A stretch of DNA of 64,000 nucleotides from the NCBI RefSeq assembly GCF_963921235.1, contig NC_086097.1:57476001-57540000 (forward strand), written 5' to 3'. This document shows positions 3,207 through 52,410 of the stretch, in pieces. The DNA is from Mobula hypostoma (taxonomy: Eukaryota). The stretch's first letter is position 1. Each line of letters opens with the position of its first letter. Below the pieces are notes generated by a model. That model worked only from the letters and a program-made list of their open reading frames with translations, made no database searches and was not told the DNA's origin. A program made the translations under genes and the position numbers.

Positions 3207-3222
3207 TCTGGCTAGATTGTAC

Positions 3223-7097: not shown

Positions 7098-7501
7098 GTA
7101 AACACAAAATACTCTGCAGATGCTGGGTCAAAGCAACATGCACAATACGCTGGAGGAACTCAGCAGGTCGGGTAGCTTCCATGGAAACAAACAGTCAACG
7201 TTTCGGGCTGGAACCCTTTGTCAGGACTGAAGAGGGAGGGGGCAGGAGTGCTATAAAGAAGTCGGGGGGGGAGGGTGAGAAGGAGAAGACTGGTAGATGC
7301 CAGGTGAAAAACTAGTAAGGGGAAAGACTAAGGGGTGGGGGAGGGGAAGCAGGGAGGGGATAGGCAGGAAAGGTGAAGAAGGAATAGGGGAAAGCACAGT
7401 GGGTAGTAGAAGGAGGTGGAACCAAGAGAGAGGTGATAGGCAGCTGGAGGAGGGGGCAGAGTGAGCCTGGGATAGGGGGGGAAGGAATTACCAAAAGTTG
7501 G
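7098..7501 (-). mobile_element. Penelope-like element 3' terminal fragment (ORF end SNFW*, pyrimidine tract, degenerate hammerhead) nested in CR1
   Basis: 12-bp TSD ATGATAGAATTC at 7086-7097 and 7502-7513; hammerhead variant at 7192-7229. Confidence 0.8.
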
Positions 7502-10500
7502 ATGATAGAATTCACCCTGCAATTTGAGAGGGAGAAGATAAAGTCAGATATATCAGTTTTACATTGGAGTAAAGGGAATTACAAAGGCATGAGAGAGGGG
7601 CTGTCCAAAGTTGATTGGAAAGGACACCTACAGGGATGATGGCAGAAGAGCAATGCCTGTAGTTTCTGGGAGCAATTCAGAAGGAGCAGGATAGATACAT
7701 CCCAAAGAAGAAGTAGTATTGTAAAGGGAAAACGCCGCAACCGGGCTGACAAGGGAGGTGAAAGACAGCATAAGTTCAAAAGAGAGGGCATATAATATAG
7801 CGAAAATTAGTGGAAAGTTAGAGGATTGGGAAGCTTTTAAAAACAACAGAAGGCAATTAAAAAAGTTGTAAGGAGAGAAAAGATGAAATATGAAGGTAAG
7901 CTAGCCAATAATATACAAGAGGATACCAAAGATTTTTTTTCAGATATATAAAGAGTAAAAGAGAGGTGAGGGTGGATATTGGACTGTTGGTACATAACTC
8001 TGTAAAGGTAGCAATGGGGAACAAAGAAATAGTGGATGACTTAATAAGTATTTTGCATTAGTCTTCACTGTGGGAGACACCAGCAGTATACTAGAAATTC
8101 TGGATTGTCAGGGGTAGTAAGTGAGTATAGTTGCTATTACTTAGGAGAAGGTGCTTGGGAAACTGAGAGTCACCTGGACTAGATGGACTATATCCCAGGG
8201 TTCTGAAAGAGGTAGCTGAGACATTGGTAATGATCTTCTAAGAGTCACTAGTTTCTGGAATGGTTCTGGAGGACTGGAAAATTGTTAATGTCACTCCACT
8301 TTTTAAGAAGGAAGGGAAGTAGAAGAAAGGAAATTATAGACCAGTTAGTAATATGTTGGAGTTTATTATTAAGGATGAGGTTTTGGGGTACTTAGAGACA
8401 CATGATAAAATAGGCCAAGACAGCATGGTTTCTTTAAAGGGAAATCTTGCCTAACAAATGTGTTGGAATATCTTGAGGAAATAACAAGTAGAGTGGACAA
8501 AAAAGTCAGCGGATATTGTTTACTTGGATTTTCAGAAAGCCTTTGACAGGTGCCGCACATGAATTTGATTAATAAGATAGGAGCCCATAGTATTGCAGGA
8601 AAGATACTAGCATGGAAAGAAGACTGGCTGACTGGCAGGAGGCAGAGTGGGAATAAATGGGGCCTTTTCTTATTGGCTGCTGGTGGCTAGTATTTTTCCA
8701 CAGGAGTTGGTGTTGGGACTGCTTCTTTACAGATTATTTGTCAATGATTTGGATGACAGAATTGATGGCTTTGTGGCCAAGTTTGCGGACTACACAAAGT
8801 TAGGTGGAGGAGTAGGTAGTGTTGAAGAAGCAGGGAATCTGCAGAAGGACTTAGACAGACTGGGAAAATGGGCAAAGAAATAGCTGATGGAATATTGTGT
8901 AGGGAAGTGTCCGGTCATGCACTTTGGTGGAAGGAAGAAAAGACATAGACTATTTTCTAAATGGGGAGAAAATTCAAAAATCAAAGGTGCAAAAGGACTT
9001 GGAAATCCTTTTGCAGGATTCTCTAAACGTTAACTTGTGGGTTGGGTTGGAAGACAAATGCAATATTAGCATTAATTTTGAGAGGACTAGAATTAAGGTC
9101 AAGGATGTAATACTAAGGCTTTATAAGGCATTTGTCAGATTGCACTTGGAGTATTGTGATCAGTTTTGGTCCCCTAATCTAAGAAAAGATGTGCTGGCAT
9201 TTGAGAGGGTTCCGAGGAGGTTCACAAGAATGATTCTGGGAATGAAAGGAGTGCTTGATGGCTTTGGGGCTGTACTTGTTGGAGTTTAGAAAAATGAGGG
9301 AGAATTTCATTGAAACCTATTGAATATTGAAATGTTTGGATATAGTGGATATGGGGAGGATATTTCCTTTAGTGGGTGATTCTTGGACCGGAGGGCACAG
9401 CCTCAGAACAGAAGAATGTCCATTTAGAACAGAGATGAGGAGGAAATTCTTTAGGGTAGTGGATCTGTGGAATTCATTGTGATAGACGATTGTAGAGTCT
9501 TTGAGTATATTTAAAGCAGAGACTGGTTCTTGATTAGTCAGGATGTCAAAGGTTATGGGAAGCATGCAGGAGAAAGGTGTTGAGAGGGATAATAAATCAG
9601 TCATGATGGAATGGATGGCAGAGTAAACTAGATGTGCTGAATGGCCTAATTCTGCTCCTATGTCTTATGGTCTTATGATCTTGATATCACTGAAAGTGTA
9701 TGAACATTATTACTTTGAAACAACCACTATTGATTTTGAGAGCAGACCAAGACAGTTGAAGTTTCAACTACTCTTCACCCCTGCAGAGCGGTGATCCTCC
9801 AAGTTATATATTGTTTATTCCCCAACATCAAGACAGTTGGTACGTTATGTACCATGCATCATACATCAGTAAAAAATCTTGCTGTATACTGTAGGGCGTG
9901 CCTGATTGATGCAGGCAAGAAAATATGGCCAAGAGGTACAAATGATGTTTTCTTCTTCTGTCCTGGTGCTTTGGTGACTCGTTGTATTGATGCGCGGCTG
10001 ATATTTTTTTGGAATTGTAATGCTATTAAAATAATATGGTACATGAATTAACTATGTAAAGTGTCAGTAAAGCCTACATAATACAGCCAAGTAAATTGTA
10101 AGGGTGTACTTTGTTACCACCGGATATGACCACAACAGCAGACACTTGGCTAGCCTGCCATCTTACAACCTTACTGAACTTCCACAATTCCTTCATCTGT
10201 GTTCAGGTCCATTTCATCCATTAATCTGTGTCTGCAGAATCTTTGAAGAATCTTATCTTTATGTATAAATGTACATAAGCTCATTTTCATACAAGGTTGA
10301 GAGTAATATTCATTATATCTGAATATACAAAATGAAAACTTTAAGTGATTGATTATTTTAGAAACTCATGAATTTCATGAAATCATTTTTTCCCTTTGTA
10401 CATTCAGCTTCGACATCACAGTTATCCTCGACTTCATAAAAGTCCACCTGTACCCCACCCCCCCTATTCCTGGCAGCTTTGTGAGGCTGAAGCTCACAAA

Positions 10501-10505
10501 ATATA

Positions 10506-11125
10506 CGAGGGGTGACTGATAAGTTCGTGGCCGAAGGTAGAAGGAGTCAATTTTAGAAAACCTGGCGCATTTATTTTTCCTGCACTTACACACTTAGTCC
10601 AGCGGTCATGGAGCATACGGATCGCTTCTTTGTAGAAGTCGGTGTCTTGCACCTCCAGACATGGTTCACAGCAGGGGTGATTGATAAGTTTGTGGCCTAA
10701 GGTAGAAGGAGATGAGTTATTAACTTCAAACTTTCTGCATTTTCACTCAAAGAGTTGAACTGCACGTGCATGTAATGAGAGCTGTATACCTCATCTTCTT
10801 CTACTGTAGGCCACGAACTTATCAATCACACCAGCTGTGGACCACCCGGAGGTCCAAGACGCTCTTGATACATGCACATGCAGTTCAACTCTTTGAGTGA
10901 TAATGCAGAAAGTTTGAAGTTAAGAACTCATCTTCTTCTACCTTAAGCCACGAACTTATCAATCACCCCTGCTGTGGACCACTTCTACAAAGAAGGGATC
11001 CGTATGCTCCATGACCGCTGGACTAAGTGTGTACATGTAGGAGGGGACTATGTTGAAAAATAAGTGTGCTAGGTTTTCTAAAATTGACTCCTACCATAGG
11101 CCACAAACTTATCAATCACCCCTCG
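10506..11125. mobile_element. mariner-derived palindromic non-autonomous element (MITE-like)
   Basis: TA TSDs (10504-05, 11126-27); TIR cgaggggtga(c/t)tgataagtt(c/t)gtggcc; about 270-bp inverted arms; mariner C-terminal peptide DHFYKEGIRMLHDRWTKCVHVGGDYVEK* at about 10977-11063. Confidence 0.88.
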
Positions 11126-11146
11126 TACAAGTTAACAAGGATAAAT

Positions 11147-11276
11147 CTGACGAAGGGTCTCGGCCTGAAACGTCGACTGCACCTCTTCCTATAGATGCTG
11201 CCTGGCCTGCTGCGTTCACCAGCAACTTTGATGTATGTTGCTTGAATTTCCAGCATCTGCAGAATTCCTGTTGTTT
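11147..11276 (+). mobile_element. Short Penelope-derived repeat beginning at the hammerhead core
   Basis: 14-bp TSD AAGGATAAATCTGA at 11137-11150 and 11277-11290 (CTGA overlaps the core); the same repeat recurs at 13243, 13996, 15821, 17123 and 52305. Confidence 0.85.
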
Positions 11277-11479
11277 AAGGATAAATCTGAATGTGATTTG
11301 TTAGAAATGATTTATTTTGTTTATTTTTGCCAATTAAAACAACCTTGCACTGTTAAAATTTCTGCATAGCATGCCGCTTTGGTGATGCAGCCTGGAACTA
11401 TTTTTCCCTTCATGTTTTTGAATCAGAGGCTGATTTTATATATTTTTGCCCCTGCTAAAGCTCCAATACCATTTTGTAC

Positions 11480-12070
11480 CCCTGCCGAGACCACCTACTT
11501 CCACCTCATTATTATTGCCTATTCCGCATCAGTCTCGACTCATCTGCTGCTGAAATCATTAACCATGTCTTTGTTACCACTAAGCTTGACCATAGTAACA
11601 GACACTTGGCTAGCTTCCCAACTTACAATCTTACTGAACTTCCACAACTCCTTCATCTATCTTCAGGTCCATTTTATCGATTAATCTGTGTTTGCAGACT
11701 TGCATTAACTTCTAATTTGTTATACCTCAGTTTTAAAAGTTTCCGTCCTTGTTTTCAATTCATTTCACGTTCTATCCCCTCCACATCTACGTAATCTGCC
11801 TAGACATTTGTATTCCTTTAATTCTTAATTCTTATGTATTATATTTTAAATAACCTCAACATCGATTTAAATCACTTGAGCTGACAAATCCTGAATCTTT
11901 GGAAATTGCTGCCTAAATATCTCATCTTGCTTCCTTTAAGACACTTCTTAAAAACCAACCTGTTTGACTAATCATTTGGTAATTTGCCAGAATATGTGAC
12001 TCACTGTCAAATTTTGCTTAATAATCCTCCTGTGAAGTGCCGTGAGATGCTCTGTTGCACTGTTGGAGTA
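11480..12070 (+). mobile_element. Old L2-clade LINE 3' fragment
   Basis: AAEIINHVFVTTKLDHSN resembles the L2 motif AETLIHAFVTSRLDYCN; L2-like terminal 'ctcctgtgaagtgccgtgagatg'. Confidence 0.65.
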
Positions 12071-12906
12071 GTATTGAGGACAATGTCTGGTATTTTAACA
12101 CTATCCCTTAGGAAGTAAAGCGATTGAGTGCTTAAAATAGCTGAATATCATGAGCCATCTTATTAAAACTTTGCCTGTCTTGCATATTTGCTGCAAATTT
12201 GGTAAGATTTCTTTTGTTGTGCTGTATACATTCCTTCATAAAAATACCCTTTGATTATTGAAACTCATATAATGGCAAAATCAGTATGACCGTTCTTTTG
12301 ATTTAAATTGCTTTTAAACATTGAATATTTTAAAATACTATCTAATCAAGAAGTGTAATTATTAACAATATAAATTAATCCATAACATTTTATATGAATG
12401 ATCATACAGATAGAAACAATAGAAAAATCAATTCAGTTTATTCCAAATCAGCTCAGCTTTGCTAACTGGAAATGCAGAAAGCCAGAATTATACTATAACG
12501 TAGTTTCACAGTTACCATAGAAACTAGCATCTATGCTAATTGTGCCTTGAGGCATAAATTGGTCAGCTGTTTAGAACAGACAAACCATCCATGCACAAAA
12601 CACTCAGTGTACACTAACATCAGTGCCCTTGCACATACACTGTTTTAATCCTTTTATTATAGTAATTTTTAAAGATTTTATATCTCTGTACATGTAGTAT
12701 ATGTTACAGAAATTAATTATAAACCAACATTGTTCTTTTTTTATTATTTTCTGTATTTTTTAAAAACTATATGTATCTGAAAAATTTTATAGAAAATAGT
12801 TATTGAACATATTATGCTGATAGCAGACTAAAATTGATTGAAGTATATTTTGGTTCAATTAGCCATTTTCTTGCTGAATTTGTATCAAAACTGTGTTTCT
12901 CTTCAG

Positions 12907-12941
12907 AATGCTTGTCCAGTGAAAAAAATTAAGCTGAATGG
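12907..12941 (+). CDS. Possible small host-gene exon (NACPVKKIKLN+GG), weak
   Basis: Strong acceptor ctgtgtttctcttcag; only frame 0 is open; its phase-2 end would fit exon 14663, but the donor GG|gtttgc is weak. Confidence 0.2.
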
Positions 12942-13242
12942 GTTTGCTCATCAGTAGAGCTATTCTAAATTCACATCCTCTCCTTCTGTTGTATAGCAAT
13001 GACAAATTATGAACACTTCTAAATGTTTTTCATTTGTAAATCTCAAATACATTATTGTTCAGTTTTTGCCTGAACAATACATATCAGTTCTTTGAGCCTT
13101 CCTTCAAACACTTTATCCTTTGACCCCTTGGGTACTTTTACATATGATCTCTCTAGCTCATTCAGTTGATTTCCATAATGGTTTCAAGAGATCTATATGT
13201 TCCTTTTCATAACATTTGACAAATACTGTATGTAATGTCGGA

Positions 13243-13457
13243 CAACAGGAATTCTGCAGATGCTGGAAATTCAAGCAACACACATCAAAGTTGCTGGTGA
13301 ACGCAGCAGGCCAAGCAGCATCTGTAGGAAGAGGTGCAGTCGACGTTTCAGGCCGAGACCCTTCGTCAGTCCTGACGAAGGGTCTCGGCCTGAAACGTCG
13401 ACTGCACCTCTTCCTACAGATGCTGCTTGACCTGCTGCGTTCACCAGCAACTTTGAT
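13243..13457. mobile_element. Head-to-head inverted pair of the Penelope-derived hammerhead repeat
   Basis: 86-bp arms 13284-13369 and 13372-13457 with 1 mismatch and a 2-nt spacer; imperfect TSD tgtaatgtcgga / tataatgtcaga. Confidence 0.9.
13367..13404 (+). ncRNA. Minimal type I hammerhead ribozyme motif
   Basis: CAGUC-CUGACGA-AGGGUCUCGGCCU-GAAA-CG-UC/GACUG: perfect 5-bp helix I, intact core, helix II, palindromic ACGU helix III, GUC cleavage triplet. Confidence 0.8.
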
Positions 13458-13995
13458 ATAATGTCAGATATGTTTTATTTTATGCATATCACAACCAATG
13501 TTGACTCAGTGCCTTGAGATAGCCAATTAATATGCTTCTCCAATCCATTTGCAGATCCATCTTGGTCAGTGCCTTTTGCTTACTCTTTCTGTTCATTCTC
13601 CATATCTGCATTATTTTTCAGTCTACTAGAATAATCTGCTTATACCAAATGATTGTCTGCCTCCCCCAAAATATTTGTCAAATGAGATCATTCTTCATTC
13701 CATTAAGCAACCACAAACAATGATATGGATTATCAGGTAGCCTCTTGTAGGTCATTTAATGAACTACCGTTCCAAATACCAAGCTTAGTGGATACCTTCC
13801 TAATTTCCAATACACACAAACATTATTTCCTTTTGTCCATTTTCTGTATGCTTTCACCAGTGTTTTGCTAATCTTCAATTTTGAACTCAACATAAAGCAT
13901 CTTACTGAAAACCAGCTATATAACAAGTATATTCTCACTTATGAAGATCTTTCTATTCAATCATAAAATCTACCAAACTGCATTGAAACTGTGCA

Positions 13996-14189
13996 AACAA
14001 CAGGAATTCTGCAGACGCTGAAAATTCAAGCAACACACATCAAAGTTGCTGGTGAACGCAGCAGGCCAAGCAGCATCTGTAGGAAGAGGTGCAGTCGACG
14101 TTTCAGGCCGAGACCCTTCGTCAGGACTAACTGAAGGAAGAGTGAGTAAGGGATTTGAAAGTTGGAGGGGGAGGGGGAGATCCAAAAAA
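13996..14189 (-). mobile_element. Penelope-derived short repeat with intact hammerhead
   Basis: Near identical to the 13243 copy; approximate TSD aa(c/a)tgtgca. Confidence 0.85.
14092..14129 (-). ncRNA. Minimal type I hammerhead ribozyme motif
   Basis: Minus strand UAGUC-CUGACGA-AGGGUCUCGGCCU-GAAACGUC-GACUG. Confidence 0.78.
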
Positions 14190-14662
14190 AAATGTGCAGT
14201 TTTTTTTTGTTTTCATTTGCACATCAGGAAAAACAAGAATTTTCACAGCATTTTTTCTGTCAATGTGTTTTTTTTTGTCAATAGATCAAATGATTCTATT
14301 GCCTGCATTATTTTCCATTGTTTTGTTTGACAACCGCCATTTGAAAATGTATGCAGGGAAAATTGCTGAAAGTGGATCACTTTGTGATCTTATTTGACTT
14401 CAAGATGAAGGAGAAAAATACCAGTTGCATAAAATTATACACATTTAGGATTAGGCACAGATATATAAATAGTGTTTGAATTGTGATAGATTGTATCATA
14501 GCTGTGTTTTAAAGGGATGAAGCAACTAAGATAGAGATATTTTTCAGTACAGAGATGGATGCATCTTGAAAAGAACTTGGTGCTATGTTGCGTCATGATG
14601 TTTCCATTGTAATTCCAGAAATTTACTGGGACTACTGAAGCTTAGTTTAATGTTATTTAAAG

Positions 14663-14705
14663 GACTTTACCTGGTCCATTGAGAAGGATTCTGATCAGTT
14701 TACCG
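14663..14705 (+). CDS. Candidate internal coding exon of an unidentified host gene (xTLPGPLRRILISLP)
   Basis: Consensus donor CCG|gtaagt; acceptor tgttatttaaag; 43 nt, ends in phase 0, matching the exon at 43884. Confidence 0.55.
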
Positions 14706-15820
14706 GTAAGTTATTCTTCAAATTTTATTTCCAAATGATTGCTCTTATCACAATTCCTCCCTTGTTGCAGATGTCCTGGGACAGTTCCTTTTAATGGTCT
14801 TCCCAAATGACCTCAACTAAGTACTTCTGATTATTTCCATGGGGTGTGAGAGTCCATGTCCTGTGATCTCCTTCCCTTTACTCTATTATGATTCTGCCCT
14901 TCATATAACCCATTTGCAACACTTATTGATCCTTGTCTTCCTGATTCTTAAACTTTTCCCTGCCAATCTATTGCCCAGTTCTCTTCCTCCTTCATCCCTA
15001 CAATGGCAAGTTACCATGAAAGGAAGTCCGTATGTGCTGCAGGCTTGTGTGCTTTACACTAAATTTACCACGTAACACCACCTTAATATGCATGTGCTAT
15101 ACAATTTCTGCATCAATCTACTTTCCTTTATATCAGAATTATTAATAAACCTTTACAGGTTATGTTTGTTGATTTTCATTTTTTTCAACATTGGAATAAG
15201 CTAGTGGGTGTGAACTTGATTTATTTTTGGAATTATCTGAATATGAGACAAATTTTGGTTATATCTGCACCATTAAGACTGAAAGTTATAGACTGCATGG
15301 TTTTGTCTTATTAGAGTTCCAGAAAAATAGAATGAGAAAAAACTGTGCAGTCTATCAAATCATTAAGTTGCACAAATCACAGCAATGAATTTGACCAAAC
15401 TAACAGTTAAGGGGAAAGCTTCCATTTGCCCTAAACAAAAATAGAGCATCAATCTTAATCTACAATATTTCAGTTTTCAAGATAAACTTTATTTATTAAA
15501 ATATACTGTACATATATTGAAACAGTGTATAACATTCCTTGCATTTGTACAATCCAGTTTATACATTGATAATGTTGTAAAGTCTGCATGATTGTAGTGT
15601 CATTTAGTTAATAGATTTTATGTATGGGACATCAGGGTCATGCATGTGTCCTCCTTAAACAATACACCCTTCAAGTATCTGAGAGGTTATTAGATAAGAC
15701 CCAGTCCTTCAGTGTCCATTGGTGGGGGAAGGATGATATTGCTGACCAATATGATAAGCTAAAAAAAGGTTGTAGACAAAAGAATAACCGTGTTGCAAAA
15801 CACAGAGCAGAAAGGTATGG

Positions 15821-15915
15821 TCCTGACGAAGGGTCTCGGCCTGAAACGTCGACTGCACCTCTTCCTAGAGATGCTGCCTGGCCTGCTGCGTTCACCAGCA
15901 ACTTTTATGTGTGTT
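15821..15915 (+). mobile_element. Penelope-derived short repeat with intact hammerhead (15818-15855)
   Basis: 14-bp TSD GCAGAAAGGTATGG at 15807-15820 and 15916-15929; UGGUC/GACUG helix I. Confidence 0.85.
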
Positions 15916-16044
15916 GCAGAAAGGTATGGGTCAGATTGAATATTTCCTCCACTCCCAGAGGCAAAAAAAAGCATAAAGCAAGCTTTCCCAATATCACAGA
16001 TTGACGACTGGTACAGATAGAAAACAAGATAACTGAAGTTATTA

Positions 16045-16433
16045 GAAGGCTTACTCTCTGGAATTTAGAAGAATGCAGGGGATCTCATTGAAACCTGCCA
16101 AATGTTGAAAGGACTAAATAGGGTGGATTTGGAGAGGATGTTTTACAGCCTCAAAATTGAGGGGCGACCCTTTAGAGCAGAAGTAAGGAGGAATTTTTTA
16201 GCCAGAGAGTAGTAAATCTGTGGAATGCTCTGCCACAGACTGCGGTGGAGGTCAAGTACGTGCATATACTTAAGGCAGAAGTTGATTGTTTCTGGATCAG
16301 TCAAGGCATCAAAGGATATGGCAAGAAGGCAGATGTGTGGGGTTGAGTGGGAACAGGGATCAGCCATTATGTAATGGTGCAACAGACTCGATGGGCTGAA
16401 TGGCCTAATTCTGTTCCTATGTCTTATGGTCTT
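16045..16433 (+). mobile_element. CR1 3' fragment
   Basis: YSLEFRRM..DLIET and EVRRNFF..RVVNLWNALP-like coding; tail ggcctaattctgttcctatgtcttatggtctt. Confidence 0.85.
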
Positions 16434-16435
16434 GT

Positions 16436-17290
16436 GACTGCAATGTGCCCAGGCAGAGGATGAGGTACTATTCCTCAAGCTGTGTTGAGGCCTTATTGTA
16501 TCAGTACAGGAGATCACAGACCAGTAGGTCAGAGTTGGCACTGGGATGAGGAATTAAATAACAGGCAACAGAAAACTCATGGTCACTCCTGTGGAAGTAA
16601 AGAAGATGATCTGTAAAATGATCATCTGATCTACACTTGATTTTTCAGATGTTGAAGACACCCCATTGTGAACACCAAATGCAACACAGTGGACTGGAAG
16701 CAGTTCAAGTGAATTGTTGTTTCACCTGAAAAATTGTTTGTGCCCCTGGATGGTAGGAAGGGAAGAGTTGGAAGGATAAGTGCTGCACTGCCTGCCATTG
16801 CGAGGGGAAGTAACAAGGCCAGGAAGCATAGGAGCAGAATTTAGCCATTCGGCCTGTCACATCTAATCTGCCATTTGATCATGGCTAATTTATTTTCTCT
16901 CTTCACCCTATTGTCCTGCCTTCTCCCCATAACCTTAGAATCTCTTGTAGAAGGTGGGGGTGGGGAAGGAGGATAATTGGTGGGAATAGAAGAGCGGACA
17001 AGGGTTCACAAAATGGAATGGTCTGTGCAAAATGCTGAAAGGGGGAAAAGGAGAAGATGTGTCTAGAGTTGGAATCTCTTTGAATATGGTGGAAATTGCG
17101 AAAATAATCAGCTGAATATGGACAAGCAACACACATCAAAGTTGCTGGTGAACGCAGCAGGCCAGGCAGCATCTCTAGGAAGAGGTACAGTCGACGTTTC
17201 AGGCCGAGATCTTCGTCAGGACTAACTGAAGGAAGAGCTAGTAAGAGATTAAGTTGGGTGGAAGGTGAGCATCTGGGGTACTCTATTCAT
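16436..17290 (-). mobile_element. Decayed Penelope-like element ORF (GIY-YIG endonuclease region), interrupted by a CR1 tail (about 16815-16940) and a hammerhead repeat (about 17123-17250)
   Basis: Minus-strand degenerate peptides RNFHHIQRDSNSRHIF, QVKQQF...IWCSQWGVFNI..CRSDDHF and QLEE*YLILCLGTLQ resemble PLE GIY-YIG C-termini. Confidence 0.6.
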
Positions 17291-18529
17291 GTTCTGTCAA
17301 AATATATCACTTCCTTGTGGAGTGTGGATGAAACCAAGGTTGCAAGGCCCATGGCATCTCAGCTACAGTGTTGAAGTCATGTGCTGAAGAACTAATTGCC
17401 TCCGCTGTCGAATTATTCCAGTGTAACTGCAGCAATATGATTTAACTGACAAAAGTCAGAACAAATCCAATCGAGCAAACAACAGCCCATTGCCCTAGTC
17501 TTAAACATATCAGACTGATGGAAAGTGTGCTCTATCACTCATTTGCTTAAACATGTTCAGTGAACCTTTGCTCATTGTAGTCTTGTGAAAAGGTGGATGA
17601 AAAAATTGAGCTGAATTCTAAAGATTGATATTGATATTAAGGAAGTATTTAGTTAAGAATGACATCAAAATATACTAGTGAAATTGAAATTGACAGGAAT
17701 TGTGGAAAAATATCTCTGGTCTGGATTAATACTTAGCTGAAAAACGTTGTTGTGATAGTTGTCAGTCAGTCATCTTTAATCCATAGATAGCATCACTGTT
17801 ATCATGAGGCCAAAACTGCAGACTCTCACACACTGAGATTTGTAGTGTTTAGTTTCATTAACTAGACTGGACTATCTTCAGGATTAGTGGCAAGTGTCAA
17901 GCAGTAACTAAAATTCTACCTGAGAAAACCTTAACTACGTATCATTCTTATTCCGCACGGTTTCCATTATTGAATCCAATGCCATCAATCATACTGGAGT
18001 CATGATTTACATAGGCCAATCACATGATTTCTTTGGCTACAAGAATAAGAATGTAAATTTGGATGAGTGTCTCAACTCACAAATCCGCAAGACAATTCCA
18101 TAAATTACGATGCACACAACTGGTTTGTGATGAAATACTCTACAGTTATTTGGATACTTGCAGTTCCAGCACTCTGGATGTGTGGTACAATCCAAGGTTG
18201 CCAACCTGTGCGTCACCACTAACATCTGTTCCCTCCATGTGTGACATATGTGAAGATATATAGATAACAAGAGTTTTAGAGGGATATGGGCCAAGTGTAG
18301 GGAAATGGGATTCAATTCCATATACATCTTGGTCAGCATGGACAAGTATGAGAAGGGGTTTGAAAAACTGGCTGGTTACATTGATGGAACTAGGTGATGG
18401 GTGGGGGGTGAGGCGCCAGGGGTCCAGGGGGATATAGCTGGGTGGATGGCAGAAGGGGTATAGGGAAATGAAAGTGGAAAATTCTAAATAAATTGGAAGG
18501 GGAGAGAAAGGGAAGGGGGAACATAATGG

Positions 18530-18900
18530 TGTGAGTTACTTAGAATTGGAAAATCTTATGTTCATACCATTAGGTTGTAGACTACACAGGCAGAATATAT
18601 GGTATTGTTTTTCAAGTTTGCATTTGGCCTCCCCTCACAGGTTGGTGTGGGAGTTGAAATGACTTGTAAACTGGGAGCTCAGGGTGAGTGTTGCAGACAG
18701 AGTGTAGATTATCTGCAAACTAGTCCCTTAGTTTGCCCAGTGGACAAGGTTGCAGGAGGTGCATGTGAATTTTTTCCTCATCTAGAAGAGCTGGATGATG
18801 GTCAGTGAGGACAACCATTCCTTTCCTTATCAGATGTTGCCAGACTTGTTGAGTTCCTACAGCTGTTTTTTTTTTACTCCAGATTCAAACATCTTCAGCT
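18530..18900 (-). mobile_element. Penelope-like relic
   Basis: Minus strand ...IFCLCSLQPNGMNIRFSNS resembles the PLE ORF end; a degenerate terminal repeat at about 18830-18900 is in + orientation. Confidence 0.5.
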
Positions 18901-19057
18901 GCCAGTTTCAGCTTTCCAAACAGAATATGAGCTGGTTTTAGACATCTAAAAGTGTTTTCTATGAGTAATCAATTTAGTTGAGAAAATTGGGTGTGATTTC
19001 ATCTGATATAGAAACCATATTGGCATATTATCACAAGTTACAGTTATGATTGTGTAT

Positions 19058-21113
19058 ATAGAAACCATAGAAAAACTACAGCACAGAAGCAGGCCTTTTG
19101 GCCCTTCTTGGCTGTGCCGAACCGTTTTCTGCCTAGTCCCACTGACCTGCACACGGACCATATCCCTCCATACACCTCCCATCCATGTATCTGTCCAATT
19201 TATTCTTAAATGCTAAAAAATAACCCGCATTTACCACCTTGTCTGGCAGCTCATTTCAGACTCCCACCACTCTCTGTGTGAAGAAGCCCCCCCCTTAATG
19301 TTCCCTTTAAACTTTTCCCCCCTCACCCTTAACCCATGTCCTCTGGTTTTTTTCTCCCCTTGCCTCAGTGGAAAAAGCCTGCTTGCATTCACTCCATCTA
19401 TACCCATCATAATTTTATATACCTCTATCAAATCTCCCCTCATTCTTCTTCGCTCCAGGGAATAAAGTCCTAACCTATTCAACCTTTCTCTGTAACTGAG
19501 TTTCTCAAGTCCCGGCAACATCCTTGTAAACCTTCTCTGCACTCTTTCAACCTTATTAATATCCTTCCTGTAATTTGGTGACCAAAACTGAACACAGTAC
19601 TCCAGATTCGGCCTCACCAATGCCTTATACAACCTCATCATAACATTCCAGCTCTTATATTTAATACTTTGATTAATAAAGGCCAATGTACCAAAAGCTC
19701 TCTTTACGACCCTATCTACTTGTGACGCCACTTTTATGGAATTTTGTATCTGTATTCCCAGATCCCTGTGTTCTACTGCACTCCTCAGGGCCTTACCATT
19801 TACTCTGTATGTTCTACCTTGGTTTGTCCTTTCAAAGTGCAATACCTCACACTTGTCTGTATTAAACTCCACCTGCCATTTTTCAGCCCATTTTTCCAGC
19901 TGGTCCAAGTCCCTCTGCAGGCTCTGAAAACCTTCCTCACTGTCCACTACACCTCCAATCTTTGTATCATCAGCAAATTTGCTGATCCAATTTACCACAT
20001 TATCATCCAGATCATTGATATAGATGACAAATAACAATGGACCCAGCACTGATCCCTGTGGCACACCACTAGTCACAGGCCTCCACTCAGAGAAGCAATT
20101 CTCTACTACCACTCTTTGGCTTCTTCCATTGAGCCATTGTTTAATCCAATTTACCACCTCTCCATGTATACCTAGCGACTGAATTTTCCTAACTAACCTC
20201 GCATGTGGGACCTTGTCAAAGGCCTTACTGAAGTCTATGTAGACAATATCCACTGCCTTCCCTTCATCCACTTTCCTGGTAACCTCCTCGAAAAATTCCA
20301 ATAGATTGGTCAATCATAACCTACCACACACAAAGCCATGTTGACTCTCCCTAATAAGTCCCTGTCTATCCAAATGCTTGTAGATTCTGTCTCTTAGTAG
20401 TCCCTCCAATAACTTACCCACTACCGACGTCAGACTTACTGGCCTATAATTTCCCGGATTACTTTTCGATCCTTTTTTAAACAATGGAACAACATGAGCT
20501 ACTCTCCAATCCTCCGGCACCTCACCGGTAGACACCGACAATTTAAATATATCTGCCAGGGCCCCTGCAATTTCAACACTATTCTCCTTCAAGGTCCGAG
20601 GGAATACCCTGTCAGGTCCTGGGGATTTATCCACTTTAATTTGCCTCAAGGTAGCAAGTACCTCCTCCTTTTCAATCTGTACAGTTTCCATGATCTCACT
20701 ACTTGTTTCCCTTAATTCCATAGACTTCATGCCAGTTTCTTTAGTAAATACAGACGCAAAAAACCCACTTAAGATCTCCCCCATTTCTTTTGGTTCCGCA
20801 CATAGCCGACCACTCTGATGTTCAAGAGGACCAATTTTATCCCTTACAATCCTTTTACTCTTAATATATCTGTAAAAGCTCTTTGGATTATCCTTCACTT
20901 TGACTGCCAAGGCAACCTTATGTCTTCTTTTAGCCCTCCTGATTTCTTTAAGTATTTTCTTGCACTTTTTATACTCCTCAAGCACCTTATTTACTCCCTG
21001 TTTCCTATACATGTCATACAACTCTCTCTTCTTCTTTATCAGAGTTGCAATATCCCTTGAGAACCAAGGTTCCTTATTCCTATTCACTTTGCCTTTAATC
21101 TTGACAGGAACAT
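19058..21113 (-). mobile_element. Young 5'-truncated CR1 LINE (ORF2 RT)
   Basis: ORFs 20314-21087 and 19231-20313 are in the same frame, split by one TGA. KSPGPD, NYRPVSLTS, QHGF, DFSKAFD, GVPQGSVLGP and FADDTK intact; 3' tail at about 19058. Confidence 0.95.
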
Positions 21114-21649
21114 ATATTTTTCATTTTCTCATATCTAACTGCCGGTCAACCATCAGAAGAATTTAATGAAGAGTTTATTTTCTAAGGGTGCCTGGGAACA
21201 ACTTCAATACAGTGTTTTTATTTTGGGGTGTGGCTGAGCTGAAAATTGCTTGAGCTGTCCCATGAATGTCTATGATGTCATCATGATTGCTGGATGAAAA
21301 TACTTCCCTTGTAATCAAGCTTGACAGTCATTATTCTATTGTTTTGTCAGAAGCAACAATACTGAAGGGAATGCTATAGCAATCTTTAATTGGAAGCTAA
21401 CAAAAACTTGTATTTCCTTGTCTCCAAAAGGAACTTAAAGTATATTTAAAATTGCCTTTAATTGAAGTGGACAACAGTAAATAGTTATTTAAAATACAAG
21501 ATGATTCATTTCAATTGGAATGGTAAACAGAACAAAGCATTCTACTGTAAAGCAACAAAGATTGTTATTTTGAATTCATTTTGTCTCTTTTGGTATATGG
21601 ACTTCTACTTTTCTGTCTTGAAATTATTCTTCTGTTCAAAACAAATGTT

Positions 21650-24869: not shown

Positions 24870-25500
24870 TAAAAAAAACCTTTGACTCCATCAGCCAAGA
24901 GGGATCATGGAGAATCCTCCTGAAACTTATCTGAAAGTTTGTTTCCATCATACATCTGGAATACAATAACAAGTAAACCAACATACACAATCCCAGTGCA
25001 AACTGGGGTCAAACAAGGCTATGTCATCACCACAACTCTTTTCTCAGTCATCCTCACTGCAGTGTTGTAGCTCATTTTCAGCAGGCTCCCTGTGGAGCTG
25101 ATCTACAGAAATTGCTTGACATTTGTTGTCGCCATGCCAAAACCAGGGTGAGTCACAGCTGCAATATTCAAACACAACTGGAAGCCAAACTGCAGGTCAT
25201 CATTCCCTGAGTTTTCAAGAGAACGAACCTCTCAGTAAATATTTGTAAGGCAATCATCCTCTAACAATGCCCCTATTGTACAAAATTACCTCTAGGCAAT
25301 AAAAATCCTGGAAAACATCGATCTCTTTCCAGATCTCTGGACCATCTCTCGGCAAGAATTGATAAGAATGACAAAAGTCACTACCATCTCTGGGATACCA
25401 GTTTGAGGAAAACAGTTTTTGATATGTACAGCAATGTTATAATCTATTGGACAGCAGTGATCTCTGGCCTCCGAGTCTTTTGGAGACAAGGACCAATTAT
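24870..25500 (+). mobile_element. Old RTE/BovB-like LINE RT relic
   Basis: Degenerate KTFDSISQEGSWRILLK and VQTGVKQGYVITTTLFS. Confidence 0.55.
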
Positions 25501-25888: not shown

Positions 25889-26487
25889 AACCCTTCATTG
25901 TTTCCAGTATTCTGTTTATGACTATCTTGAGAACAGAAAATATTGGCCATGATTCTGTATCATGGAGCAGGTCATGGTGTTTAGGGTTAAATCGCAATTG
26001 TGCATTTGTAGCATGCTACATGCTATTTGTCAAATTGAACTATGCAATACTATGTTTACTGGAAATTTGCTGAGAAGTCAATTTGTGGTCAAACTTCATG
26101 TATTATTGATTTCATGCTTGCCATAATAGATAGGGCCGTGACCAACCAACTAATGCAGAATGTGAACCAAGGAAGAGAAAAATGGCAGGAAGAATTCCCT
26201 TTTCTTTGTTTAAAGGGACTATCAATTAGTTGTACATTTGAATCAGAATCATGACATAAAATCTATAAACTACTAAAATAAATAGTGCACAAAAATATAA
26301 TAAAATAGTGGTGTTCATGGGTTCATGGACTATTCAGAAATTTGTTGGTGGAGGGGAAGCAATCTTGGATCTTTATCTTGAAACTCGAGATACCTTGTTT
26401 CTGCTTTCAAAAATGTATAGCAATTTACTCTGATTTATTGCTTTCAGTGGTACTTTATTTTATTGCCTTGACTACTTATTCCACTTC

Positions 26488-30250: not shown

Positions 30251-30254
30251 ATCA

Positions 30255-33200: not shown

Positions 33201-34520
33201 TTTTACCCTTGCAGTTCCTTAGATCTATCCAGAATGATTCAACACCTTCCGAGCCTATGTCAAATCTTTCTAATGATCTGATTTAATTTTTTACCAACAG
33301 AGCAACACCACCCCCTCTGAATTCCTGCCTCTTTTGATACAATGTGTATCCTTGGACATTAAACTCCTAGCTATAATTTTCAGCCATGACTCTGTGATGC
33401 CTACGACATTGTACCTGTCAATCTGCAACTGTGTTGCAAGTTCACCTACCTTATTCCATATACTGCACGCATTCAGATACAACACCTTTAGTCCTGTATT
33501 TACCCTTTTTGATATTGTCGCACCATGCTTAAATTTCTGATTCCTAACTTTGTCTGAGGTCTTACCAACATCAGCCTCACAGCCTCTCCACTAACTGTTC
33601 TGGCACTCTGTTTCCCATCCCCTGGCACCTCCAGTTTAAATCCCACCATGCAGCATTAACAAACCTTCATGCTAGTATATTAGTCCCCCTCCAATTCAGG
33701 TGCAAACCATCCCTTCTGTGCAGGTCCCACCTTCTTGGAAGACAACAATAATCCAAAAATCTTATGCCCTCTCTCTTACACGAACTCCTTAGCCATGTAT
33801 TAAACTGTATACATGTCCTAGTTCTGGCCTCACTAATACATGGCATGGGGTGCAATCCTGAGATCACAACCCTGGAGGTCCTGCCCTTTAACCTAGCACC
33901 TAACTGCCTAACCTCCTTACACAGAACCTCATCACTCGTCCTACCCATGTCATTAGTACCTACATGGACCACGACTTCTGGCTGTTCACCCTCCCATTTA
34001 AGAATGCTGAGGATGCGATATGAGATATCCTGGACTCTGGCACCAGGAGGCAACATGCTATGAGGGTATCTCAATCTTGCCCGCAGAGCCTCCTGTCTAT
34101 TCTCCTAGCTAACAAATACCTTATTACCACAGCGTGCTCTTCTTCCCCCTTCCCATCTGAGTCACAGAGGCAGACTCAGTGCCAGAGACCCAACCACTGT
34201 AACTTTCCTCCGTTAGGTCAACTCCCCCCCACCCCTCCAACAGTATCCAGAATGATATACCTTTTGTTGAGGGGATATCCATAGGGGCACTGGCTGCTTA
34301 AGCCCTTTCCCCTTCCTGACTGTCACCCAGGTTCCTGTGTCCTGCACTTGGGTGTAACTACCCCTCTATATGCCCTATCTATCACTCCTCCTCAACCTCT
34401 CGAATGATCCGGAGTTCATCCAGTTTCTGGCAGTTCGTTAGAAGCTGCAGCTGGATGCATTTCTCATAGTTGTAGTGGTCAGGGATACTTGAGGTCTCCC
34501 TGCCTTCCCACATCCTGCAT
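30255..34520 (-). mobile_element. Near full-length decayed CR1 LINE (ORF1 zinc-finger/esterase plus ORF2), similar to 5480-9682
   Basis: ORF1 PGARVQDI...VVVHVGTND...DGLHLN; endonuclease LYLNACSIWNK; RT QHGFLKGKSCLTNL, DFQKAFD, FADD. Confidence 0.9.
32475..32964 (+). mobile_element. Young CR1 3' fragment nested antisense in the older CR1
   Basis: Open C-terminal ORF 32473-32868; (TTTCTATG)n tail; ATCAT repeated at both junctions. Confidence 0.9.
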
Positions 34521-34894: not shown

Positions 34895-36494
34895 CAGTGG
34901 CATGCAAAAATTTGGGCACCCGTGGTCAAAATTTCTGTTACTGTGAATAGTTAAGTGAGTAGAAGATGAACTGATCTTCAAAAGTCATAAAGTTAAAGAT
35001 GAAAAATTCTTTTCAACATTTTAAGCAAGATTAGTGTATTATTTTTGTTTCGTACAATTTTAGAGTGAGAAAAAGGAAAGGAGCACCTTGCAAAAGTTTA
35101 GGCACCCCAAGAGATTTGTGCTCTCAGATAACCTTTACCAAGGTCTCAGACCTTAATTAGCTTGTTAGGGCTATGGCTTGGTCACAGTCATCATTAGGAA
35201 AGGCTAGGTGATGCAAATTTCATAAATACCCTGACTCCTCAAACCTTGTCCCAACAATCAGCAGCTGCCTAGCACTCCAAAAATTAAAATAAATGATGCC
35301 CACAACACAGGAGAAGGCTATAAGAAGACAGCAAAGCGTTTTCAGGTAGCCGTTTCCTCAGTTTGTAATGTAATTAAGAAATGGCAGTTAACAGGAATGG
35401 TGGAGGTCAAGTTGAGCTCTGGAAGACCAAGAAACTTTCTGAGAGAACTGCTTGTAGGATTGCTAGAAAGGCAAATTAAAACCCCCATTTGACTGCAAAA
35501 GACCTTCAGGAAGATTTAGCAGACTCTGGAGTGGTGGTGCACTGTTCTACTGTACAGTGACACCTGCACAAATATGACCCTCATGGAAGAGTCATCAGAA
35601 GAAAACCTTTCCTGCGTCCTCACCACAAAATTCAGCGTCAGAAGTTTGCAAAGGAACATCTAAACAAGCCTGATGCATTTTGGAAACAAGTCCTGTGGAC
35701 TGATGAAGTTAAAATAGAATATTTGGCCGCAATGAGCAAAGGTATGTTTGGAGAAAAAAGGGTGCAGAATTTCATGAAAAGAACACCTCTCCAAGGTGTT
35801 CTGCTAAGCACGGGGGTGGATCGATCATGCTTTGGGCTTGTGTTGCAGCCAGTGGCATGGGGAATGTTTCACTGGTAGAGGGAGGAATGAATTCAGTTAA
35901 ATACCAACAAATTCTGGAAGCAAGCATCACACTGTCTGTAAGAAAGCCGAAGATGAAACGAGGATGACTTCTACAACAGGATAATGATCCTAAGCACGCC
36001 TCAAAATCCACAATGGACTACCTCAAGAGGTGCATGCTGAAGGTTTTGCCATGGACCATACAGTCCCCCGACCTAAACATCATCGAAGATCTGTGGATAG
36101 ACTTCAAATGAGCAGTGCATGCAAGATGGCCCAAGAATCTCACAGAACTAGAAGCCTTTTGCGAGGAAGAATGGGCGAAAATTCCCCATACAAGAATTGA
36201 AAGACTCTTAGCTGGCTACAGAAAGCGTTTACAAGTTATGATACTTGCCAAAGGGGGTGTTACTAAGTACTGAGCATGCAGGGTGCCCAAACTTTTGCTT
36301 CGGGCCCTTTTCCTTTTTTGTTATTTTGAAACTGTAAAAGATGGAAATAAATAAGTAATCTTGCTTAAAATATTAAAGAAATGTATCATCTTTAACTCTA
36401 TGCCTTTTGGAAATCAGGTCATCTTTTACTCGCTTAGCTATTCACAGTAACAGAAATTTTGACCAGGGGTGCCCAAACTTTTGCATGCCACTTG
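34895..36494 (+). mobile_element. Tc1-family DNA transposon (DD34E, IR/DR type), inactive
   Basis: TA TSDs; about 215-bp TIRs starting cagtggcatgcaaaa with an internal direct repeat gcaaaagttt(a/g)ggcaccc. Confidence 0.95.
35262..36273 (+). pseudogene. Tc1 transposase pseudogene
   Basis: GEGYKK, SGRPR, WTDEVKIE, KHGGGSIMLWAC, QQDNDPKH, SPDLNIIEDLW (34 residues between D and E), GGVTKY*; frameshifts and stops. Confidence 0.9.
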
Positions 36495-42131: not shown

Positions 42132-43704
42132 CAGGTTTCCCCCGCCATCCGAAGGTACAGCGTTCCTATGAAACGGTTCGTAAGCCGAAATGTCGTAAAG
42201 CGAAGAAGCAATTACCATTTACTTATATGGGAAAATTTTGTGAGTGTTCGCAGACCTGAAAATAACCTACCAAATCATGCCAAATAACACATAAAACTTA
42301 AAATAACAGTAACATATAGTAAAAGCAGGAATGATATGATAAATACACAGCCTATATAAAGTAGAAATACTTTTCCACAATTATTACTGAACTGTTCTCC
42401 GTAGCGAAAGAAAATCTCACGCAAGCGCTGTTGGCAAAAGCACGGTGCAAGTGCTCTCCAGTAACCTTTAAGCTATGAAGCTGCCAAATCATGCCAAATA
42501 ACATGTAAAAATACACAGCCGATATAAAGTAGAATTAATGTATGTACAGTGTAGTATCACTTACTGGAATTGGGAAGACAGTGCAGAGCACACTGATGAT
42601 GGTGTGTAGACTGAGTCATCGCAGGTTGGGGTGGTGCAGTGGCCCCCACCCTCCAGGCTGCCGACAGATACGTTGCTGCAAGGCATGCAGGGGTCCAGCA
42701 GTAGCCGGGAGGCATCCAGCACATCTTTAAGAAAAAAGCCAAAATAAACATGCTAATTAATTAGGTGCTGCCCGGCAAATAATTGTCGGCCCAGATCAGT
42801 GCCGATTGCCGATTGCATCTCCTTTGATCTGGGCCGACATTTACGTGTGGGGCGGCACCTAATTAATTAGCATGTTTATTTCAACTTTTTTCTTAAAAAT
42901 GTGTTGTGTGCCTCCCGGCTACTGCTGCATTCTCCGCGAATTGGTGCAGTATCTGTCCGCGGCCTGGGTGTTGGGGTGGTGGGACACTGGGGTGTCATCT
43001 CGTCATCTGTTTCCATTAGAGCAGGCAGCTCATCTTCTCCTATGACTGCCCGCCTCGATGTCGAAAGTCGAGATTCGTCGTCTGCTGTGGCTGATGTGGA
43101 AGGCTTGCTTGACTGCTGAGCCTCGCGCATTTTTCTATCATACAGTTCTTTGTAAGGACGCAAACCATGTTGCAAATATCCCCTAAACCTACGTACCCTT
43201 TCAAAATTAAAGTCGTATTTTATCATTGCAGCGAAAATCTCATATAGTTGCTTCACGTTCATTTCGCTAATGAATTCGGTTTCGATTGTTATCCTTTCCT
43301 CTTCTAATTGCATCAGCTCTTCATCTATCAGTTCTTGGTCATGGGATGCCAAAACCTCTCCAACATCATCTTCTTCAGCTTCCACAAGCCAAACTCACTT
43401 AGTCCTTACTTCGTTCACCACGATCGAAACGCTTAATTGTGTCTGGTTTTACGCTAAGTGTAACACCCTTACGAGCACTTTAGGCTTTTCCAATACCTTA
43501 GAACTCATCTTGCAAACGGCTGCTCACAGGCACGTGTTTCAGCAATGCCGTTCCGAATCCGGGGCAGAGCGGCTGCTCAGGGCGCGCGCTGCTTTTTTCG
43601 TAACAGTGAAAACACCTTCTGAAAGCGAAAACAGGGTACTAATGTAGGTCTTTCGTAACAGTGAGGTTTCATAAAGCGAACGTTCGAAAAGCAGGGGACA
43701 CCTG
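42132..43704 (-). mobile_element. Tigger/pogo-derived non-autonomous DNA transposon
   Basis: TA TSDs; TIRs caggtttcccccgc / gcaggggacacctg; ORF 42876-43385 resembles the acidic Tigger transposase C-terminus (EDDVGEVLASHDQELIDEEL...PYKELY); no DDE domain seen. Confidence 0.85.
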
Positions 43705-43883: not shown

Positions 43884-43967
43884 TCTCCAGAACTGGTACA
43901 AGATGAGGAGGACGACAGCACTGAATTCCCAGGAACCAGTTATATTGCTGTTGCTGATTTATCAAAG
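43884..43967 (+). CDS. Candidate internal coding exon (SPELVQDEEDDSTEFPGTSYIAVADLSK)
   Basis: Acceptor ttcttttcctgtatttctag, donor AAG|gtaaat; 84 nt, phase 0/0, open frame, non-repetitive. Confidence 0.75.
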
Positions 43968-47649: not shown

Positions 47650-48400
47650 TTCCTAAATTGGGAAGACAGATTAAACAAAAAAGGGTAGCATGATGGTATA
47701 ACAGCCTATGGTCCAAGGATGATTTTGAACGATTGGTACAGGAATGTTAACTGTTTATCTTCTACATTAATCATGATTTTATGAATGTTGCAGGTATGTA
47801 GATAACTATGACTGCCATGGACATGATGGGCTGAAGGGTGTGTTTCTGTGCTGCATGATTCAGTGGGAACTTAGTGTTTAACAGTTTGGTAAATGTGACG
47901 GGAAATTTAATGCAGAAAATTGTGAAATAGATCATTTTGGCAGAAAGAACAAGCAAGACACTAAAGGTTAAATGCACATTTCTACTGGATACACAGGGTT
48001 AGAGACTTAGCTGGACACGTGCATAAATCTTGTGTCATGACATTGAAAGAGCAGTAAAGCATTGGGAGTCTGTAATTCACAACCAGGGCCAGGGCAGAGA
48101 GTACAACACACAATAATATTGCACTGTAACTTCTACAAGTCCTACAAGGTTCATTTGGATAGTTCCGGAAATGAAAAATTTTGGTTGCCAGGATGGACTG
48201 GTGAAGCTGTGGTTGTTCCCTTTAGGGTTAAGAACTTTGAGAGGAGATTTTATGTGTTCTACAGGGCATGCTTTGACAGAGTAAATAAAGGAAAGCTGTT
48301 CCCCCCACTCATGGTTTGAGGACCAGAACGCACAGGTTTAGAGTGATGACAAAAAGACTCTAAGAAGGAAGGGAAAATTTAAGGAAAAGCTTTCTTTAAG
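47650..48400 (+). mobile_element. Highly decayed CR1 relics
   Basis: Residual 'tttaatgcagaaaattgtgaaa..cattttggcagaaagaac' and 'gaggagattt..gacagagtaaataaaggaaagctgttccc'. Confidence 0.5.
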
Positions 48401-49079
48401 GAATAAACTCTTCTTGGGTTTCCAGCTGGGTACTAGTATCGATTATAACCAACGATTCGGTGACAAACTTTGTCATCATAATGCCAGTTATAATCAATAC
48501 ATGTACCCAGATGGAAGCTCAAGAAGAGTTTATTTGTCATATATGCTTGGAAGCACTAGATCCTTTTTCAAAAGCTTTCTTTGTTCAGAGTGTGATTGCA
48601 ATTTACTACTTGTAAAAGGCTGGAGACAAATTTGTTAAAGGCCTCTCTGAAAGGGGGTAATTATTTGTAGGTTACAGGGAAAAGTTGGGGAATGGGACTG
48701 ATGAATCTGCCGGACAGTTTACTGAATTACAATCTTGTGCAAGTGGAAAGAGTGAATGCTTTGCATGTATCTGTCATTTTTTCACTGTTATCTGAATAAA
48801 ACATTTGATGCTGCATTGGTGCAAGGTTGTTGAAACTTAAGTTTTTTTCAACTATTTTGATTGCCTGATTTATAAGTCTCATTGAAGTATACCAACCAGC
48901 ATTCTCTACTTCTGGAAATAAACTTTAATTGCTTTAAATAAATTTGTTTTTTAATGTGTCTGAATGAACTGAGCAATGCAGAACACAGGCATTTGCAGTC
49001 GATGTTTTACTGTGCACTAGTTTAATCCAATCTATATACATCCTGGGGGATGCAGTCTGAATGCTTTAACTTTGTAACA

Positions 49080-51887: not shown

Positions 51888-52410
51888 CAGTGGATTCTGG
51901 TTAATTGGGACATATCAAGACTAGTACATTTTGGCCCAATTAAGCAGCTGCCCCAATTAGCCGGAGTTTCATGGAAGTAGTTAATAAGGCATAAAAAAGG
52001 CAAACTACCTTTTAATTCAGTAAAAATTGATATATTTAATGAAATACAGAATGATTAGAACTCTACCAAAATTATGACTATACTATAAAACAGTGTATTA
52101 GTTCCTAATAGTTATTGACGGAGGAATTCATCCGGTGTTCACTGCCATGTTCCTTTGATTGACTGTAGGTGAACAAAATCAGTGCAGACACCTAGTGCAG
52201 ATAGTAGACTGCCTTCAAACAGTACTGTCAATGATTGCATCCTCCAAATCTTCATTTTAATTGCAACGTTTAAGATGACTGTCGATACCTTCGTTCTTCA
52301 TAGTCCTGACAAAGGGTCTCGGCCTGAAACGTCGACTGCACCTCTTCCTAGAGATGACCAGCAACTTTTATGTGTGTTTCTTCATAGTTACTTGTGTATT
52401 ACTTGCCAAC
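51888..52410. mobile_element. Truncated Tigger-like MITE (same family as 56150-56950, opposite orientation)
   Basis: TA followed by TIR cagtggattctggttaattggg; reverse-complement similarity to 56500-56950. Confidence 0.75.
52305..52377 (+). mobile_element. Penelope-derived short repeat with a mutated hammerhead core (CUGACAA)
   Basis: 11-bp TSD TTCTTCATAGT at 52294-52304 and 52378-52388; internal deletion. Confidence 0.8.

Follow-up and report, generated by a model that had tools for sequence, protein, structure and literature searches.

In a 64,000-nucleotide stretch of the Mobula hypostoma genome (NC_086097.1, positions 57,476,001 to 57,540,000; hereafter the window), seven short dispersed insertions carry a hammerhead ribozyme motif and are very probably 3' ends, truncated on the 5' side, of an abundant Penelope-like element (PLE), likely of the Neptune type, in which the hammerhead is likely an uncut passenger. 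By most of the features tested on the sequence, they are the truncated end of an endonuclease-bearing (EN+) PLE with a minimal hammerhead, that is, of a known kind. The original prediction had described them as a recently active system resembling short interspersed nuclear elements (SINEs), derived from PLEs and placing self-cleaving motifs in introns. All seven insertions proved to be real and lie where they had been placed, and their PLE origin is borne out by the truncation architecture, an end resembling that of an open reading frame (ORF) and nearby endonuclease relics. Most likely, the short repeats are inert by-products of the PLE and not a separate ribozyme-driven SINE system.

The insertions share one layout, in which different lengths of the same 3' end are retained (ends are given relative to C3 of the hammerhead core). 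The longest copy (7098-7501, minus strand) is the PLE 3' end of an older subfamily and comprises, in order, the last codons of an ORF-like end, a pyrimidine-rich 3' untranslated region (UTR), a motif at 7192-7229 with G8A, G10.1-C11.1 and a GUU triplet, and a long tail. The others belong to a young subfamily. The copy at 13996-14188 (minus strand) retains ~65 nt of 3' UTR, an intact motif (14092-14129) and a long tail, while the copy at 11147-11276 (plus strand) starts at C3, has lost the helix I 5' arm and possesses a long tail (+129); the CTGA at its start is common to the element and the target-site duplication (TSD). The copy at 15821-15915 (plus strand) starts 2-3 nt before C3 and has a short end (+94); its motif at 15818-15855 is intact, although the outer bases of helix I come from the host DNA. 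At 17123-17257 (minus strand), a copy with a damaged helix II and a short end (+97) sits inside an old PLE ORF relic in the same orientation, and the copy at 52301-52377 (plus strand) starts 1-5 nt before C3 with a TAGT microhomology at the 5' junction and carries G8A, a 20-nt internal deletion and a short end. The remaining insertion (13243-13455, both strands) is palindromic: a minus arm with a long tail (+127) and a plus arm with a short end (+85) form 86-nt arms, 99% complementary and joined at the 5' edge of the hammerhead. The motif of the plus arm (13367-13404) is intact in sequence and is predicted to be locked in the resulting hairpin (-182 kcal/mol). If transcribed, this hairpin could be a double-stranded RNA (dsRNA) substrate for editing or dicing.

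The type I hammerhead descriptor search that the original prediction had proposed was run on both strands of the window (CUGANGA, helix II of at least 3 bp, GAAA, UH and helix I of at least 3 bp). Exactly three matches were obtained, with C3 at 13372 and 15823 on the plus strand and at 14124 on the minus strand, against 0.09 matches per shuffled window in 100 first-order Markov shuffles; when helix I of at least 4 bp and a palindromic helix III were demanded, the 100 shuffles gave no match. These three are the motifs that had been reported as intact in core and helix I, and the strict scan confirms them. The seven insertions together contain eight motif arms, of which five are defective. In agreement with the earlier description, G8A affects the arms at 7192-7229 (minus) and 52301-52338 (plus), helix II is altered in the arm at 17188 (minus), and the helix I 5' arm is gone at 11147 (plus). 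The left arm of the palindrome at 13369 (minus) has lost it as well. The palindrome ACGU (positions 15.2-16.2) is kept in all eight arms and no helix III forms in the monomer, as expected for the minimal type I hammerhead that had been proposed, in which helix III is too short to close.

Could the hammerhead match be a coincidence? In its favor, an Rfam search of the window returned five matches, none of which was a hammerhead, and the helix covariation score was not significant, being reached by 56 of 500 shuffles (10 alignment rows, two without the motif); helix changes among the motif copies are one-sided only, the sole two-sided change occurring in the decayed row at 18800. Nevertheless, we consider coincidence hardly credible, given the shuffled-window rate above, the fit to the published consensus features (available text of PMC4209133), and the comparison of the two subfamilies, which are ~72% alike and keep the core, both helices and ACGU while two of four loop II bases differ. 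One of the Rfam matches, mir-3926, was rejected, as it is the palindromic insertion itself.

The division into two subfamilies sets seven young arms apart from the older 7098 copy. Young copies are mutually identical at 79-85 of 84-85 bases (61-64 of 65 for the internally deleted copy at 52306), and the 7098 copy shares 59-61 of 82-83 bases with six young arms and 52 of 80 with the deleted one. The subfamily comparison and the folding energies both point to a helix II register composed of a bulged A, 4 bp and a 4-nt loop, which improves on the AGG/CCU pairing of the original prediction: -7.0 versus -5.6 kcal/mol in the young subfamily and -10.5 versus -6.5 kcal/mol in the 7098 copy. This register, of lower energy in both subfamilies, leaves an unpaired base between positions 9 and 10.1. 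At the first pair, G10.1-C11.1, the 7098 copy retains G-C, six young arms show G-U and the arm at 17188 has a gap, so judging from the alignment the young subfamily is likely to have G10.1-U11.1 in place of G-C. Such a replacement would lower hammerhead activity, an effect for which the literature searched gave no measurement. An open frame extends across the tail; its coding role was ruled out because the two subfamilies differ there by a 2-nt gap.

The parent element can be approached through three decayed relics, which match shark and ray PLE proteins and bear out the claim that GIY-YIG relics lie nearby. The relic at 16438-17290 (minus strand) covers a linker and a GIY-YIG endonuclease (best match E 7e-9) and is interrupted by the 17123 copy and a further repeat (~16810-16940) as well as by stop codons and frameshifts. 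Within it, the stretch 16432-16752 gave 18 protein matches at E<=1e-3; of 10 matched proteins looked up, seven were labelled as shark, skate or ray and two bore no name label, while one was discarded as an unrelated SUMO-like repeat protein. The second, a decayed endonuclease end at 18536-18820 (minus strand; E 2.7e-9 to protein P0001), has at its 5' side a weakly similar inverted tail (~18821-18898) with a score of 44, compared with a mean of 25.8 and a maximum of 43 in 300 shuffles. The third endonuclease end, at 60375-60578 (plus strand; E 8e-6), has no hammerhead seen adjoining it. The full-length relatives P0027 and P0028 contain a reverse transcriptase (RT), a CX2-5CxxC linker and GIY-YIG; the linker preceding the C-terminal GIY-YIG is complete in P0001, P0010, P0027 and P0028 and legible in part in the window relic. 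According to the available text of PMC8557442, this layout is common to Neptune and Nematis. The vertebrate host makes Neptune the likely choice. It had also been claimed that the longest copy reaches the end of a PLE ORF. Here the S-N-F-W-stop at 7488-7502 speaks for the claim, being similar to the way in which P0001 and P0013 end, and the link that it provides is a weak one of four codons plus a stop.

Evidence for insertion and for its recency comes from the flanking DNA. As the original prediction had it, four of the seven insertions are bounded by exact TSDs of 11-14 bp: 12 bp for the 7098 copy (7086-7097 and 7502-7513), 14 bp for the 11147 copy (11137-11150 and 11277-11290), 14 bp for the 15821 copy (15807-15820 and 15916-15929) and 11 bp for the 52301 copy (52294-52304 and 52378-52388). 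In a random control, an exact flanking repeat of 11 bp was found in 15 of 20000 random spans. Two imperfect TSDs can be added, one of 11/13 bases around the palindrome (13230-13242 and 13456-13468) and one of 9/10 bases around the 13996 copy (13986-13995 and 14189-14198); none was found at the 17123 copy. The imperfect TSDs were recognized through empty sites in related organisms, for which contigs from four sequencing runs were compared with window positions 6900-18950. A contig of organism B skips 13990-14192, and one of organism C skips 13231-13456, so that the 13996 copy and the palindrome, respectively, are absent there; in both contigs, the missing stretch corresponds to the element together with a single TSD. 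Since these empty sites exist, the insertions are recent, and since the organism B flanks around the 13996 site differ at only 1-2 per 100 bases, this copy must be very young. Together with the near identity of the copies, the empty sites substantiate the recent activity that had been proposed. No empty site was seen for the copies at 7098, 11147, 15821 and 17123. Contigs of organism B stop within the copies at 13243, 15821 and 17123, as would be expected if B possesses them. The family is very abundant: in run X1, depth over repeat bins was 4e5 to 1.4e6, as against 20-47 in unique bins, values that are not to be read as copy numbers.

Another important question is whether the copies form a family of their own. 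The 5' ends are variable, lying between ~-278 and 0 relative to C3, and the same four-run comparison revealed loose contig ends at 14187, 17250 and 13367; therefore, members of the family extend upstream past the points at which the window copies stop. Simple consensus patterns for the RNA polymerase III A and B boxes gave no hit on either strand of the two longest copies, and none of the copies has a sense poly(A). A distinct SINE-like ribozyme system is therefore not supported, because there is no common 5' end, there are no A and B boxes, and the family continues upstream.

The breakpoints provide a record of how the copies arose. The predicted cut site (+27/+28) is read through in all seven insertions and none starts there; therefore, the templates were uncleaved at that site. 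Instead, four of the seven 5' breakpoints cluster between -5 and +4 relative to C3, where the motif has its outer edge, and this preference for the outer edge over the cut site also supports an uncleaved template. Three of these four (11147, 15821 and 52301) show 1-4 nt of microhomology with the target, and the fourth is the fold-back palindrome. At the other end, the seven young arms fall into two classes ~33-35 nt apart, namely, +85 to +97 (four arms) and +127 to +129 (three arms; the 14124 minus-strand end is counted at ~+129 excluding the TSD, or +138 with it).

These observations can be accommodated in the following scheme. The GIY-YIG endonuclease of the element would make a staggered cut in the target, seen as the 10-14 bp TSD, and reverse transcription would begin internally in the element RNA, from either of two sites ~33-35 nt apart, a mechanism that we carry over by analogy from Poseidon of the anole. 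The RT would then copy through the uncleaved hammerhead, often halting early, after which the end of the cDNA may become joined to the target by a microhomology of 1-4 nt, as at 11147, 15821 and 52301, or alternatively may fold back on itself, which would produce the 13243 palindrome. That so many stops fall at the outer edge is likely due to RNA structure or protein binding and not to self-cleavage; helix I and a predicted upstream hairpin that masks the core are candidates for the stall. The resulting copies are likely dead on arrival, with no ORF, no polymerase III boxes and a lone hammerhead in need of a partner. In a full-length tandem parent, the action of the motif would probably resemble that in other PLEs, being weak and depending on a dimer or on assistance from protein.

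Several observations weigh against this interpretation. A full-length parent was sought by DNA pattern and by protein in metagenome and viral contig scans, and 0 loci were found, nor did any complete ORF turn up in connection with the repeat; the relics in the window are old and are not an active parent; and the young subfamily is tied to an ORF indirectly, being ~72% similar to the 7098 copy. In its 3' UTR, the 18536 relic scores 59 against the 7098 copy, which is no better than shuffled sequence (mean 57.8). Moreover, the clustering of breakpoints has a probability of ~0.004-0.04 under uniform truncation, depending on the range and count assumed, and could reflect a short dedicated template as its source. 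The stability of the masking hairpin does not stand out from that of shuffled sequences (z 0.17), and the hairpin that the cDNA could form by folding back has a low stability (-3.6 kcal/mol), so the proposed cause of the stall is tentative.

The most direct competitor is a self-propagating non-autonomous family, in which an RNA of 75-135 nt beginning at helix I is mobilized in trans by the PLE protein. Its strength lies in the four breakpoints that fall within 10 nt of each other at the outer edge of the motif and in the great repeat depth, and non-autonomous PLE derivatives and retrozymes do exist (bioRxiv 10.64898/2026.07.22.740005 and PMC8557442, in their available text). However, the four breakpoints are several bases apart, with microhomology at three of them and a fold-back at the remaining one; identity between short and long copies reaches 85/85; and no A or B box is present. 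We therefore regard this explanation as improbable. Non-LTR retrozymes, which are PLE-related, carry a type I hammerhead and have been recorded in one chondrichthyan genome, are defined by at least two consecutive head-to-tail units, each with a complete motif (available text of bioRxiv 10.64898/2026.07.22.740005). A solo retrozyme does not agree with this definition, as no head-to-tail tandem unit occurs among the seven insertions, which, unlike retrozymes, are dispersed single truncations with one inverted pair. Nor is any of the seven copies bounded by cut sites, a feature of circular retrozyme monomers.

The reading as truncated PLE ends is in line with what has been published for PLEs, as far as the available text of the cited sources goes. 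Minimal dimer-type hammerheads (min-HHRs) have been on record from PLE repeats since 2014 (PMC4209133); they are known from the Xena, Poseidon and Neptune PLEs of fishes, and most of the motifs are dispersed single ones that probably go back to truncated PLEs. The min-HHRs of metazoan PLE pseudo-LTRs (pLTRs) are likewise of type I, lack a real helix III, are palindromic at 15.2-16.2, have an unpaired base between 9 and 10.1 and a helix I of 4-5 bp, and occur mostly as single dispersed motifs with some close pairs on opposite strands; the bulged-A register of helix II found here is the one of their consensus (PMC4209133). In contrast to their conserved G-C, which is typical without being demanded by the descriptor, the young subfamily likely has, judging from its sequence, G10.1-U11.1 (A-U in the other register), with a 4-bp helix II. 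Neptune-type EN+ PLE units are composed of a pLTR, an inverted truncated copy and an optional tail of 30-40 bp (PMC8557442). The 5' truncation, the inverted partner, the one-sided tail, the insertion into an older PLE and, in the relatives, the linker zinc finger are all similar here; unlike those units, there are clear 10-14 bp TSDs among the seven copies, with no microsatellite targeting, and there is no full-length unit within the window. In Poseidon of Anolis carolinensis, internal RT initiation at two sites gives a tail difference, mutations in the hammerhead have no effect on insertion in vitro, and the hammerhead cleaves with the help of the PLE protein, which is needed (PMC11167929). 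As in the ray copies, there are two 3' end points on the downstream side of the hammerhead, and the RNA template is uncleaved. Poseidon differs in belonging to another clade, with an AC-rich initiation region and an ORF starting in stem II; the ends found here are GU-rich and show no demonstrated conserved frame. Two supplementary files of PMC4209133 that were searched contain no entry for a shark or ray, and a literature search for hammerheads in PLEs of cartilaginous fishes, which did not extend to subscription journals or repeat databases, returned nothing specific.

Whether the dispersed motifs can cut at all was approached by folding. Predicted pairing of the hammerhead helices is 0.0 for the 14124 motif, in which the core is masked by the upstream arm, and 0.0 for the 13372 motif, locked in the palindrome; for the 15823 motif, it is ~0.3 for helix I and ~0.5 for helix II. 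Two of the three intact motifs are thus predicted to be masked, and the activity of these copies is doubtful because of this and of the likely G10.1-U11.1 pair of the young subfamily. In published experiments, cleavage of the min-HHR monomer was undetectable, and dimers and trimers cleaved weakly (available text of PMC4209133).

A further possibility is that dispersed copies of the motif retain activity within host pre-mRNA, where two copies of a single transcript, or a copy with PLE RNA or protein, would join through ACGU and cut introns. Core, helices and palindrome are kept in three of eight arms, truncation at 15821 strips the predicted masking arm (pairing of 0.3/0.5 versus 0.0 in the native context), a distance of 2451 nt separates two intact motifs on the plus strand, and the anole hammerhead cleaves with PLE protein (available text of PMC11167929). 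Against this, the second plus-strand motif is predicted to be locked in the -182 kcal/mol hairpin, G-U likely takes the place of G10.1-C11.1, a helix III joining two cores would have 4 bp, which is marginal, and the predicted minimum free energy structure of the dimer contains no hammerhead dimer fold. In addition, even the published multimers are weak cleavers, G8A in two of eight arms would fit neutral CpG decay, and compensatory changes are absent among the real motif copies. In the search for a host gene, two exons on the plus strand, 25048-25147 and 43884-43967, looked plausible from splice-site heuristics and have good splice signals; searches for homologues and in Atlas and PDB yielded nothing usable, and no host gene emerged. 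With these searches fruitless, five of eight arms defective and two of the three intact motifs predicted to be masked, the claim that self-cleaving motifs have been placed in introns is not substantiated, and activity in pre-mRNA is in our opinion very unlikely. A Pfam search of 20 candidates chosen out of 45 gave one match, to TALPID3, which was rejected since it lay below threshold (E 0.013; 13.7 versus 27 bits).

An extended form of this idea would have consequences for the whole genome, and we hold it to be equally unlikely. If the RT stalls at the outer edge, the commonest copy would start at helix I and would have lost the masking arm; tens of thousands of unmasked hammerheads across a ray or shark genome might then pair via ACGU between dispersed copies of a single transcript, or adopt their fold with the aid of PLE protein, and so cleave host pre-mRNAs, with fold-back copies adding perfect dsRNA hairpins. 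If dispersed copies did cut host transcripts, this would be a genome-wide burden for which no description was met in the available literature. As it stands, the reading as truncated PLE ends adds one more PLE family with a known minimal hammerhead. Its interest is that young, near-identical, TSD-flanked copies with empty sites in sister organisms record the start and stop points of PLE reverse transcription in vivo. Such a record bears on whether PLE hammerheads cut in vivo and matter for mobility, a question that the available texts of PMC4209133, PMC8557442 and PMC11167929 leave open.

An eighth piece of the family, at ~26470-26575 (plus strand), is an older tail-only fragment in which the catalytic core is absent and no TSD was found. 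The aligned part begins roughly with the bases that follow the predicted cut site on its 3' side, two further bases being shared upstream; this is a single case and could be due to chance.

The rest of the window is also rich in repeats. Broken frames at 70-3224 (minus strand) presumably represent a Gypsy-like LTR retrotransposon, with gag-, protease-, RT- and RNase H-like motifs. The pieces at 19231-21120 (minus strand), 7744-9660, 29792-33600 and 60600-61660 are taken by us to be CR1/L2-like long interspersed nuclear elements (LINEs), one of which contains an open RT frame of 360 codons. We likewise assume that 53524-54618 (plus strand) is an RT-like relic and 35561-35878 (plus strand) a Tc1-transposase-like fragment. 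At 10657-11135, adjoining the 11147 copy, an inverted repeat with 126-nt arms 78 nt apart is combined with three 56-nt direct units and resembles the relic of a small DNA transposon. Finally, hairpin-forming inverted repeats are present at 42696-42927 (103-nt arms) and 48393-48538 (a 146-nt fold-back).

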